DNA of 64,000 nt from an uncultured Gammaproteobacteria bacterium (lineage in GTDB: Bacteria > Patescibacteriota > Microgenomatia > Levybacterales > UBA12049), in NCBI GenBank assembly GCA_964474445.1, contig CAYYSJ010000002.1, forward strand, positions 53,610 through 117,609. The letters are read 5' to 3'. Of this stretch, positions 17,247 through 19,840 are shown piece by piece; position 1 is the stretch's first letter; every line of letters begins with the position of its first letter. The position numbers and the translations under genes were made by a program. The notes under the pieces are model-generated. The model worked only from the letters and a program-made list of their open reading frames with translations. It did no database searches and was not told the DNA's origin.

Positions 17247-17332
17247 AGTTTGTCGTCTCTGATTTTTATCACTGACATAATTCATTCTAAATTTTATCTT
17301 TGCTATAATACATGCAGGTATATGAGATAATT

Positions 17333-18475
17333 ATGAAATTATATCCTTTTATTGCATTCCTACTCCTTTTTCTCCTTCTTCCATTTTCTGTTTTTGCTGC
17401 TGATCAGCAAACAGTTATTCTTTCTAAGAATGAAACAGTAAATCATGATTATTTTGCTACAGGAGGAAGTGTTGATATTGCAGGAACAGTCAATGGTGAT
17501 GTCTATGCTGGAGGAGGTAATGTGTTAATTGATGGGACAGTGAATGGTGATGTCCTTGCTGCAGGTGGACAAGTAACAGTAAGGGGAACTGTTCAGAATA
17601 TACGAGTAGCCGGAGGACAAATTGTTATTGACGGCAAGGTCAATGGAAATGTGACTGCTCTTGGAGGGAACATAACGACAACAGACACATCCACTATTAG
17701 CGGAGGCCTTGTTGGTGCAGGGGGACAATATAATTTACTTGGGCCTGTTGGTAAAACCGTCTCCATTGCATCTGGTCAAATAACTCTTGGAAGTATGATC
17801 GGAAGCGATGTCTGGCTGAATAGTCAAACTATTATCCTTACTCCCCAGGCAAAAGTAAATGGAAATGTTTCTTATGTCAGTCCACAGAATGCCCAGATCG
17901 CAAATGGTGCTATTATCAGTGGAAAAGTAAGTCACTCTTTTCCTCCTCAAAAACAGGAAAGACATGCGCGTGGTCTTATTGCAGCACTGGCAGGGCTTCG
18001 AATAGGTGTATCTATCGTGAGCTTTTTAGTAAGTCTTGTCTTTGGACTTTTATTGTTTCTCCTGATTCCTGTATATTCTGAAAGGATAACAGAACATATT
18101 TCACGCCATCCCTGGCAATCACTTCTTGTAGGAATTGTTGGTTGGGTACTCACACCTCTCGCCATTATTCTCCTTACAATAACACTTATTGGTATTCCAT
18201 TTGCAGTGGTTGTAGGCATTGCGATAGGTATCCTTTCCTATATTGGAAAAATCCTTGCGGCGGTTGTTATTGGACAATGGATAGTAGCACGGTTTGATAA
18301 ACGGAAAAATAATATTGTTGCACTCTTGGTTGGACTAATCGCAGTTGAGATAGTTGGACTTATTCCTGTCCTGGGTTGGTTATTTGCGTTTATCGTTGCA
18401 GCCATCGGATTTGGTGCAGTACTTTTTATGGAGAGAATATACTATACAGAATTTCGAGCGAAAAAACTCATTTAA
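17333..18475 (+). CDS. Signal-peptide protein with bactofilin-like beta-helical repeats and a C-terminal multi-TM domain
   Basis: MKLYPFIAFLLLFLLLPFSVFA-AD signal peptide, then repeated (G)TVNGDV.. / AGG.V.I.G.VNGNV motifs, then 4 or more TM helices. Start taken at the second ATG because the TGCTATAAT -10 box ends 2 nt before the first ATG. Confidence 0.5.
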   Translation: MKLYPFIAFLLLFLLLPFSVFAADQQTVILSKNETVNHDYFATGGSVDIAGTVNGDVYAGGGNVLIDGTVNGDVLAAGGQVTVRGTVQNIRVAGGQIVIDGKVNGNVTALGGNITTTDTSTISGGLVGAGGQYNLLGPVGKTVSIASGQITLGSMIGSDVWLNSQTIILTPQAKVNGNVSYVSPQNAQIANGAIISGKVSHSFPPQKQERHARGLIAALAGLRIGVSIVSFLVSLVFGLLLFLLIPVYSERITEHISRHPWQSLLVGIVGWVLTPLAIILLTITLIGIPFAVVVGIAIGILSYIGKILAAVVIGQWIVARFDKRKNNIVALLVGLIAVEIVGLIPVLGWLFAFIVAAIGFGAVLFMERIYYTEFRAKKLI

Positions 18476-19571
18476 CAATTTGTTCCCAGGGAAATCCTTT
18501 TCGTCCAAAGTGGCCATACGCAGCAGTCTTTTTATATAGAGGTTTTCGTAAATCAAGTCGTTTAAGAATACCACTTACAGATGTGTCTAAAAGTTCTTTC
18601 ATAAAATGTTTGATAACCTTGTCGCTCTTTTTAGCAGTTCCAAACGTCTCGATGTCTTGCATAACAGGATGTTTGACTCCAATACAGTAAGCAAGTCTCA
18701 CCTCACATTTTTCAGCCAACTTATGGGCAACGATATTTTTTGCTAAAAACCGTGCAGCATATGCTGCAGACCTATCTACTTTTGTTGGGTCTTTTCCAGA
18801 AAAGGCACCACCACCAATTCGTGCATAGCCTCCATATGTGTCAACAACAATTTTTCTGCCAGTTACCCCAGTATCGCTTGCAGGTCCTCCAATGTGCCAT
18901 ACGCTTGTTCCATTGACAATCAGTTGGTCTTTTTTAATAGCAAATCCATATTTTTTGAGAAGTGGTGAAACTACTTTTTGGTACAAATCATGCTCTACTT
19001 CAGGAAGTGTGACTTTCTCATCATGAGGAACGGCAATAACAACTGTAGTAACTCCTATTGGTTTGCCATTGTTATACTCAACAGTTACTTGTGTTTTGCC
19101 ATCTGGTCGAAGATAAGGTATTTTTTTTGATGTTCGTGCTGTATCCAGTTTTTCAGCAAGTCGATGCGCAAGGGTGATGGGGAGAGGCATCAGCTCTGGT
19201 GTCTCGTTACAAGCAAATCCAAACATCATTCCTTGATCTCCTGCCCCTTCATTATCAACACCAACTGCTATTTCAGGAGATTGCTCATGGATATATACCT
19301 CAACAGAAGATTTATAGGTAAAACGGAAAAGAGGATTGGTATATCCCAAGTCCTTTATGACATTTCGTGCGACTTTCTCAAAGTGTACTTTTGCATTAGC
19401 TGTAACTTCTCCGGCCAACACAATTTTTTCTTCAGTCACCAATGTCTCAACAGCAACTCGTCCTTTAGAATCTTCTCTCAGTACAGCATCCACTATCGCA
19501 TCGCTGACCTGATCACAAATCTTATCAGGGTGTCCACTACAAACTGACTCTGATGTAAAAATACTGCTCAT
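18468..19571 (-). CDS. metK: S-adenosylmethionine synthetase
   Basis: MSSIFTSESVCSGHPDKICDQVSDAIVDA..GAGDQGMMFGFA..GGGAFSGKDPTKVDRSAAYAAR. Start at the internal Met, because the upstream 67 codons of the table ORF are the riboswitch leader. Confidence 0.93.
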   Translation of the reverse strand: MSSIFTSESVCSGHPDKICDQVSDAIVDAVLREDSKGRVAVETLVTEEKIVLAGEVTANAKVHFEKVARNVIKDLGYTNPLFRFTYKSSVEVYIHEQSPEIAVGVDNEGAGDQGMMFGFACNETPELMPLPITLAHRLAEKLDTARTSKKIPYLRPDGKTQVTVEYNNGKPIGVTTVVIAVPHDEKVTLPEVEHDLYQKVVSPLLKKYGFAIKKDQLIVNGTSVWHIGGPASDTGVTGRKIVVDTYGGYARIGGGAFSGKDPTKVDRSAAYAARFLAKNIVAHKLAEKCEVRLAYCIGVKHPVMQDIETFGTAKKSDKVIKHFMKELLDTSVSGILKRLDLRKPLYKKTAAYGHFGRKGFPWEQIVK

Positions 19572-19607
19572 ATGCTTAGACTCCTTTTTCGTCTTCCTTT
19601 TGATTAC

Positions 19608-19745
19608 AAAAAAACCTCTCTTTCGAGAGGTACATGTTTGTTCTACATCTGGAACCACATTTTCCTCTCGGATTCTGGGCACCGTGTCAATAAGGTCGGT
19701 TGCCGGATAGGTCTGGCCTATCTCTCTGAATGTTCTAGGATAAAG
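19608..19745 (-). ncRNA. S-box/SAM-I-like riboswitch leader with an intrinsic terminator upstream of metK
   Basis: The minus-strand RNA contains a hairpin GATAGG-CCAGA-CCTATC, then GGCAACC..(14 nt)..GGUGCC, then AAUCC and GAGAGG. The terminator is CCUCUC-GAAA-GAGAGG + U7 (plus coordinates 19608..19630). The aptamer GAGAGG can pair alternatively with the terminator strand CCUCUC. Confidence 0.5.
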
Positions 19746-19840
19746 TAAAGCAGAAATGTAAAAAGATTGCAAGAGACTAAATGAAAAATACTAAATGTGT
19801 TTCAGGTGTTAGGGAGTCGTATGCTTCACCAAAAAATATT

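Follow-up and report, generated by a model that had tools for sequence, protein, structure and literature searches.

A metK leader of SAM-I/IV type with a predicted transcription attenuator in a CPR bacterium

What lies in front of the S-adenosylmethionine synthetase gene metK in the 64 kb window analysed here (the whole stretch of 64,000 nucleotides): an N-terminal extension of the enzyme, as the gene call has it, or an RNA that senses S-adenosylmethionine (SAM), and if so, of which family and with which mode of control? The mechanical open reading frame (18468-19772, minus strand, 434 aa, TTG start) crosses the leader, and an identical product exists among public proteins (P0001). MetK homologues carry the Pfam domains PF00438, PF02772 and PF02773, and the close ones are 366-370 aa long. 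Their N-termini (MNSIFTSESV..., MNTTLFTSESV...) align with the ATG at 19571, which yields a metK of 367 aa (18468..19571, minus strand) preceded by a Shine-Dalgarno sequence, AAGGAG (19581..19586), 9 nt before the ATG and 27 nt past the U tract described below. Judged from this alignment, the 434-aa frame is over-extended and the real start is ATG 19571, in agreement with the initial annotation, which had called the start of the metK frame wrong. The public call is 67 codons too long because its frame continues across the riboswitch; the TTG taken as 'start' falls within a likely -35 box, TTGCAA (19767..19772, minus strand). A predicted extended -10 element, TGc-TTTACT (19744..19752), follows 17 nt after this box and ends 10 nt before P1. 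Nearly all of the CPR metK leaders gathered here have TGnTTTA(C/A)T some 10 nt ahead of P1, and a TTGnnn box recurs at equal distance in related leaders; a simple sigma-70 scan of the region did not call the predicted promoter. The nearest named MetK relatives derive from metagenome-assembled genomes of Levyibacteriota, Daviesbacteria, Roizmanbacteria and the 'Patescibacteria group', which places the host among CPR bacteria of Microgenomates type.

A cmscan search of the entire 64 kb window with Rfam 15 returned a single match at gathering level, RF01725 (SAM-I/IV), which reached 47.8 bits where 41.1 are required. The E-value was 1.1e-4 over the entire window and 5.3e-7 when only the leader was searched. 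The match is located on the minus strand (19738-19624), directly upstream of metK and on the same strand, and is full-length, spanning model positions 1-99 of 99. The models for SAM-I (RF00162) and SAM-IV (RF00634) both score below RF01725 on the leader. This comparison of three models had been proposed by the initial annotation, and its outcome bears out the SAM-clan riboswitch placed there before metK as well as the suggestion of a SAM-I/IV variant, whereas the label 'S-box/SAM-I' given to the region stands at clan level only, since RF00162 stays below threshold and the family is SAM-I/IV. The folding energy of the 146-nt leader is lower than that of all 200 dinucleotide shuffles (z = -2.79). 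We consider it highly probable that the leader senses SAM as an OFF riboswitch of the SAM clan, with SAM-I/IV as the closest family, and governs metK via transcription attenuation; most likely, high SAM brings transcription to a stop ahead of metK in this CPR bacterium. The initial interpretation is essentially right: the leader adds one more member to a riboswitch family already known, and the attenuation proposed for it is of the textbook kind. SAM-I, SAM-IV and SAM-I/IV have been classified as structural types within one general class (McCown et al. 2017, PMC5473149).

The aptamer with helices P1 to P5 occupies positions 19640..19733 of the minus strand and is supported by RF01725, by our own covariance model R1 and by covariation. 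Read 5' to 3', the leader begins with UAGA and the 5' strand of P1, ACAUU (19729..19733), which pairs with AAUGU (19657..19661); P1, which had first been described as not obvious, thus exists, and the AUGU of its 3' strand is also part of antiterminator helix 2. After CAGA follows P2 (19705..19724; G-A-GAUAGG, loop CCAGA, CCUAUC-C), which consists of the closing pair G19724-C19705, a bulged A and the stem GAUAGG/CCUAUC (19722-19706), that is 6+1 bp with a 5-nt loop. This helix is uninterrupted and has neither internal loop nor K-turn, the lack of a K-turn having been noted initially. P3 (19678..19704) is formed by GGC-AA-CCG, the 12-nt loop ACCUUAUUGACA and CGG-U-GCC, with GGC/GCC and CCG/CGG pairing around an AA bulge and a U bulge; read as GGCAACC-(14 nt)-GGUGCC (19704-19678), it contributes the GCAACC...GGUGCC core of the SAM pocket. 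J3/4 (CAGAA) and P4 (UCC-GAGA-GGA) together cover 19663..19677, P4 being a hairpin of 3 bp (19672-19663) predicted in the minimum free energy (MFE) structure. AAUCC (19674-19670) and GAGAGG (19669-19664) lie in J3/4 and P4; the 'GAGAGG segment' recorded earlier is present and can be refined to the loop and 3' strand of the P4 hairpin. A single A and the 3' strand of P1 come next, then one G and P5, GUUC-CAGAUGUA-GAAC (19640..19655), which starts 1 nt after P1. The linker AAACAUGU (19632..19639) has a conserved A-rich start and contains ACAU (19637-19634), which mimics the 5' strand of P1; ACCUCUC, GAAA, GAGAGGU and UUUUUU complete the leader. All sequence elements listed by the initial annotation were found at the minus-strand coordinates it gave.

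The pocket signature of the SAM clan is complete. It comprises AGAG in J1/2, the P3 bulge GCAACC...GGUGC and the tandem A-U/U-A pairs in P1, all of them at highly conserved consensus positions. The nucleotides contacting SAM are assigned from established SAM-I structures, and binding of SAM by the leader is what we infer.

Related metK leaders, designated here by locus numbers (L001 and so forth), were gathered in three ways: by a MetK-based contig scan, by exact-protein look-ups for the homologues closest to the MetK of the window and by one metagenome scan with the pattern AGAGAGATA-N(5-35)-TATCCGGCAACC. Among the matches listed from the contig scan, about 10 of 80 loci were CPR relatives, the others belonging to Firmicutes and other groups with ordinary S-boxes. 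The metagenome scan mainly returned the ordinary SAM-I leader of one unrelated organism together with chance matches in coding DNA, and its useful loci were only L092/L095, L106 and L113. Because MAFFT alignments with L001, L009 or L118 put P4 against P5, R1 was seeded on three clean leaders, those of the window, L083 and L119, with P5 of L119 off by one column in the seed.

R1 retrieves 20 related metK leaders at E <= 0.01. In their alignment, 95.8% of 452 cells pair. Shuffling the columns lowers this share to 75.9%, and sliding the partners by 1-3 columns lowers it to 34-48%. Fitting an alignment to a model favours the structure from the start, but the slid-partner control argues against an artefact. 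The covariation in orthologous metK leaders that had been suggested as a check is clearly positive: compensatory changes occur in 20 of the 25 pairs (P1 4/5, P2 7/7, P3 3/6 with the other three invariant, P4 2/3, P5 4/4), and none of 500 shuffles matched the observed value by any measure. The A-U and U-A pairs of P1 near the junction are kept in 19 and 20 of the 20 leaders, respectively, and the C-G pairs of P3 are invariant in all of them. Helix 4 is paired in 86% and takes the forms UCC-GGGA-GGA, UCC-CAAAA-GGA, UCCU-GAAG-AGGA and UCCGCC-AACU-GGCGGA in relatives.

Behind the linker, an intrinsic terminator is predicted, ACCUCUC-GAAA-GAGAGGU overlapping U7 (19608..19631, minus strand, -10.7 kcal/mol; CCUCUC-GAAA-GAGAGG-U7 at 19630-19608). 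Its hairpin comprises 7 pairs (four of them G-C) and a GAAA loop, and it ends 36 nt before the ATG. The terminator scan reported two sites, one per strand and both belonging to this hairpin, compared to a mean of 0.5 in shuffles. We know of no study of intrinsic termination in these uncultivated bacteria. Alternative pairing with the aptamer is mutually exclusive with both P1 and the terminator: helix 1 of the antiterminator joins CGAGAGG (19664..19670) to CCUCUCG (19630-19624), and helix 2 joins AUGU (19660-19657, P1 3' strand) to ACAU (19637-19634), with P5 residing in the enclosed loop. When the RNA is folded at increasing lengths, this antiterminator is the MFE structure of nascent transcripts ending at 19626-19620, once CCUCUC has emerged. 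A terminator/antiterminator platform had been recognised from the outset, and hairpin, U7 and alternative pairing are all recovered here; the logic of two GAGAGG copies competing for CCUCUC was correct but incomplete, as the antiterminator consists of CGAGAGG:CCUCUCG plus AUGU:ACAU and consumes the 3' strand of P1.

For a transcript ending before the terminator 3' strand, the calculated energies are -31.1 kcal/mol for the antiterminator and -18.6 kcal/mol for the ligand-free aptamer. At full length, they are -31.1 kcal/mol for the antiterminator and -29.8 kcal/mol for aptamer plus terminator, a difference of 1.3 kcal/mol before ligand or tertiary energy, both of which are left out of such secondary-structure energies. 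The two full-length states lie so close together that even a modest energy of ligand binding would decide the outcome. Within the folding model, this near-balance is the arrangement expected for an OFF attenuator. The terminator is kept in L083, L119, L118 and L106, and ACAU, ACAUU or ACA is also found at the linker position in L119, L118 and L083. Terminator and antiterminator hardly differ in sequence among the closest orthologues and are to be regarded as conserved, not as covarying. GAGAG in J1/2 was considered as an antiterminator partner of CUCUC and set aside for the window, where the MFE structure uses CGAGAGG and the J1/2 pairing is possible as a secondary one. The MFE structure of L106 does use GAGAG of J1/2 with CUCUC.

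We propose that the transcript probably begins with a few bases ahead of P1, driven by the putative promoter TTGCAA-N17-(TG)TTTACT. Upon binding of SAM, the four-way junction of P1, P2, P3 and the small P4 would be locked together with P5, and CGAGAGG...AUGU, the 3' half of P4 plus the 3' strand of P1, would become unavailable. ACCUCUC would then pair with the downstream GAGAGGU, and the hairpin with U7 would end transcription before metK. When SAM is absent, CGAGAGG:CCUCUCG and AUGU:ACAU would form as the bases emerge, enclosing P5, and with the antiterminator in place RNA polymerase would continue into metK.

SAM-I/IV riboswitches are usually described as translational, and the hairpin might accordingly act mainly on translation by hiding the ribosome-binding site. 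This is favoured by L106, L118 and L119, in which the AUG follows directly after the U tract, so that GAGAGG, the 3' strand of the terminator, also serves as Shine-Dalgarno sequence and control may be dual, transcriptional and translational. In the nearest relatives with translational control, moreover, the start codon is hidden within the pseudoknot PK-2. In the window, however, the hairpin with U7 has the form of a canonical intrinsic terminator, and the separate AAGGAG, 27 nt past the U tract, is unpaired with switch elements in the predicted folds. As the true Shine-Dalgarno sequence is thus situated beyond the U tract and outside the switch, transcriptional control is favoured, and we regard a mainly translational role of the hairpin as improbable.

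Another candidate is a canonical S-box riboswitch (SAM-I, RF00162), and the window shares several traits with this type: a four-way junction with P4, AAUCC in J3/4, the GCAACC/GGUGCC core and a terminator/antiterminator platform like that of Bacillus. In addition, other CPR metK leaders, namely L005, L006, L073 and L106, do match RF00162. Nevertheless, assignment of the window to the canonical S-box appears most unlikely. RF00162 ranks below RF01725 not only on the full leader. When the P1-P4 stretch was analysed alone (P5 removed), RF01725 was still best with 35.7 bits, from which it follows that RF00162 must stay below 35.7 bits on this junction, under its gathering score of 44.4. P2 is devoid of an internal loop or K-turn, P5 follows P1, and the complementarity between the P2 loop and J3/4 amounts to at most 2 bp, such that PK-1 is not seen in the window. 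It has to be kept in mind for PK-1 that the per-sequence shuffle test is powerless for helices of 4 bp; the canonical SAM-I leader L086 fails it as well.

PK-2 is a hallmark common to SAM-I/IV and SAM-IV (PMC6890682). We assessed it as the duplex energy between the P3 loop and the tail after P5, compared with 1000 shuffles of the loop. In this assay, the env87 RNA, serving as positive control, yielded a PK-2 of 6 bp with -8.1 kcal/mol. The window yielded 3 bp and -0.6 kcal/mol with the tail up to the terminator, equalled or bettered by 71% of the shuffles in a test that is insensitive to tertiary pairing of 3-4 bp, and -5.9 kcal/mol with the whole tail to the AUG, matched by 29% of the shuffles. 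L083 gave no PK-2 duplex in the same test, and L119 a possible one, UGUAU:AUACA, with a shuffle fraction of 0.02. In the translational relatives L082, L085, L120, L121 and L001, PK-2 comprises 5-6 bp with shuffle fractions of 0.005-0.08. The respective helices are CAUAUU:AAUAUG (L082, L085), UCAUAG:CUAUGA (L120), CAUAG:CUAUG (L121) and AAGCUU:AAGCUU (L001), and they covary; their place is constant, 2-3 nt behind P5 and over the start codon. In the terminator-type leaders, this position in the tail is taken by the P1 5'-strand mimic (ACAU, ACAUU, ACA) and the terminator 5' strand. In the solved SAM-I/IV structure, PK-2 packs against the pocket helix. That no PK-2 was detectable in the window slightly weakens its standing as a typical SAM-I/IV member and leaves the claim of a SAM-clan riboswitch intact. 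A displaced PK-2, in which ACCUU of the P3 loop would find its partner in P4 or in the GAGGU that belongs to the terminator 3' strand and create an ON switch, was rejected: the pairing is not above chance, is not conserved in L083, L119 and L118 and makes no regulatory sense for metK.

It could also be argued that the leader is decaying or ligand-independent, with no useful SAM binding and a terminator that is a constitutive or otherwise regulated attenuator, given that neither PK-1 nor PK-2 is detectable and that close relatives with other peripheries point to a fast-evolving leader, but this is very improbable in view of an intact core (42-43 of 44 positions identical to relatives that keep the pseudoknots), of three orthologues that retain the short-P2 architecture with compensatory changes and of a finely poised balance between antiterminator and terminator.

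A SAM-responsive attenuator in the window fits well with its closest orthologues. L083/L084 (MetK 80% identical) are syntenic, with genes for an HD protein, metK, DUF8173 and rhodanese, and have the same terminator stem with a GAGA loop. L119 (MetK 75% identical) has the P4 UCC-GGGA-GGA and the terminator CCCUCUC-GAAA-GAGAGG, and its antiterminator forms via GGGAGG with a G-U pair. In L118 (MetK 76% identical), P4 is without GAGAGG, and CCUCUCGG has its perfect complement in CCGAGAGG of P3. L083, L119 and L118 all reach 45-51 bits with RF01725, in each of them the terminator 5' strand has a complementary strand within the aptamer, and the MFE structure of the nascent transcript is an antiterminator that disrupts the aptamer.

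Other orthologous leaders are built differently. L081, L082, L085, L117, L120 and L121, whose MetK proteins are 73-83% identical to that of the window, possess a long P2 with internal loop, a P5 and a PK-2 over the AUG, and are without P4 and without terminator. The UCGG at their P2 tip is complementary to CCGA in J3/1, a PK-1-like pairing that is recurrent, not covarying, and too short to be assessed by shuffling. By their predicted pairing, these six leaders are of SAM-IV topology. L081 is syntenic with the window and shares 42 of 44 core nucleotides with it; L082 and L085 share 38 of 44. All six are missed by Rfam or remain under every gathering threshold, and are found by R1 at E = 1e-5 to 1e-8. 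In L106, finally, P2 and P4 are both long and a terminator is present; this leader matches RF00162 above threshold. The orthologous leader of one narrow lineage thus bears all three SAM-clan peripheries. A bolder interpretation built on this, possible but not established, which we put forward only tentatively and deem unlikely at present, is that the aptamer of the window is functional without PK-1 and PK-2, that the PK-2 tail has become a P1-strand mimic within the terminator/antiterminator platform and that SAM-clan families interconvert over short evolutionary distances. The lineage underlying this interpretation comprises syntenic metK leaders with MetK proteins that are 75-85% identical, with 42-43 of 44 core nucleotides identical, with SAM-I/IV-, SAM-IV- and SAM-I-like peripheries and with transcriptional or translational platforms. 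If it were true, a SAM-IV-like CPR form would be slipping under current Rfam thresholds.

The fitting annotation for the region is a SAM-I/IV riboswitch plus attenuator. A CPR bacterium with a reduced genome would thus still keep feedback control over SAM synthesis through a standard riboswitch. In the comparative set, nature has varied peripheral folds and expression platforms around one conserved SAM pocket; this compact series could be used to gauge the contribution of pseudoknots to SAM-clan function. For riboswitch specialists, the apparent loss of PK-2 and the plasticity of the periphery among orthologues offer modest leads.

Among the known systems, SAM-IV is characterised by an internal loop in P2, both PK-1 and PK-2, the lack of P4 and a hairpin after P1 that has been named P5 (cryo-EM, PMC6890682). 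The window shares the SAM-clan core and the hairpin after P1 with SAM-IV (RF00634) and is its opposite in the continuous P2, the lack of PK-1 and of a detectable PK-2 and the presence of the P4 hairpin. With SAM-I/S-box leaders (RF00162, Bacillus subtilis), it has in common the pocket signature, the four-way junction with P4 and the regulatory logic. In S-box leaders, as long as P1 is not locked by SAM, its 3' strand and adjacent bases of P4 pair with the terminator 5' strand to make the antiterminator. The window differs from these leaders in lacking the K-turn and PK-1, in a P4 of only 3 bp, in the extra P5 and in an RF00162 score below threshold.

SAM-I/IV itself, the 'SAM-I/SAM-IV variant' of Weinberg et al. 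2010 (PMC2864571), is defined in the supplement to that study and in PMC6890682 by an uninterrupted P2 and the lack of a pseudoknot at the P2 tip. The sequence of the crystallised SAM-I/IV RNA env87 (PDB 4L81) is quoted in PMC5393176. It folds into P1, P2, P3, P4 (ACCG-GAGA-CGGU) and P5 (GCCC-GAGA-GGGC), and its tail GUCCGU is complementary to ACGGAC in the P3 loop. The window departs from this RNA in that PK-2 is not detectable and the tail holds ACAU and the terminator 5' strand instead. In the characterised env87 switch, the 3' strand of PK-2 occludes the ribosome-binding site; the expression platform of the window is an intrinsic terminator. The hosts differ as well, a CPR bacterium (Patescibacteria) versus the marine metagenomes of the family's first description. 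On the other hand, the helices of the window follow in the same order as in 4L81, P1-P2-P3-P4-P1'-P5, and both have an uninterrupted P2 without PK-1, a P3 with GCAACC/GGUGC, a P4 with GAGA loop, an A-rich linker, a P5 that begins 1 nt after P1 and an association with genes of SAM metabolism.

The public metK product (P0001, 434 aa) carries 67 codons in excess at its 5' end (window 19571-19772, minus strand), and this extension spans the entire predicted riboswitch together with its terminator. As the initial annotation noted, the annotated start of the metK ORF is wrong. The TTG at which the public call begins (19772, minus strand) forms the opening triplet of TTGCAA, the predicted -35 box. 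The predicted promoter (19744-19772) combines an extended -10 motif, TGnTTTA(C/A)T, about 10 nt 5' of P1, the first aptamer helix, with a TTGnnn box that precedes this motif by 17 nt. The -10 motif, together with the TTGnnn box, is kept at this position in nearly all of the collected CPR metK leaders (L001-L121). This pattern may hint at a CPR promoter consensus.

At its other end, metK converges with a plus-strand gene for a DUF8173 membrane protein (387 aa, 17312-18475), the two 3' ends overlapping by 8 nt (18468-18475), an overlap also found in L081, L083, L085, L116 and L122. Rfam yields a single gathering-level match across the whole 64 kb window (1-64000), namely the SAM-I/IV leader, and ARAGORN reported no tRNA genes there. 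Among the matches listed, three loci (L003, L004 and L007) from MAGs labelled 'uncultured Gammaproteobacteria' or 'Pseudomonadales' encode MetK proteins 60-64% identical to that of the window CPR bacterium, and L003 in addition has a terminator-bearing SAM leader of the CPR type; these bins may be mislabelled or contaminated. A tandem array on a marine metagenome contig (L097, about 1100-1400; unit of about 47 nt containing GAUACACACAGUCCCUAACUAUCAGGCAACCCCUUAUAUAAGA) was rejected as a chance match to the search pattern with no relation to the riboswitch.

In three terminator-type relatives (L106:1400-1590, L118:484-620 and L119:472-605) the metK AUG comes immediately after the U tract, so that the terminator 3' strand GAGAGG doubles as a Shine-Dalgarno sequence. 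On this arrangement, a single hairpin could block transcription and translation alike.

Six closely orthologous leaders (L081:1389-1530, L082:1413-1530, L085:1384-1525, L117:461-603, L120:541-645 and L121:567-678) fell under every Rfam gathering threshold or received no score. Their SAM core is nearly identical to that of the window leader and their periphery is SAM-IV-like: P2 is long and contains an internal loop, the UCGG at its tip is complementary to CCGA in the junction strand J3/1, P5 is present and P4 absent, and a covarying PK-2, the pseudoknot between P3 loop and 3' tail, lies over the start codon.
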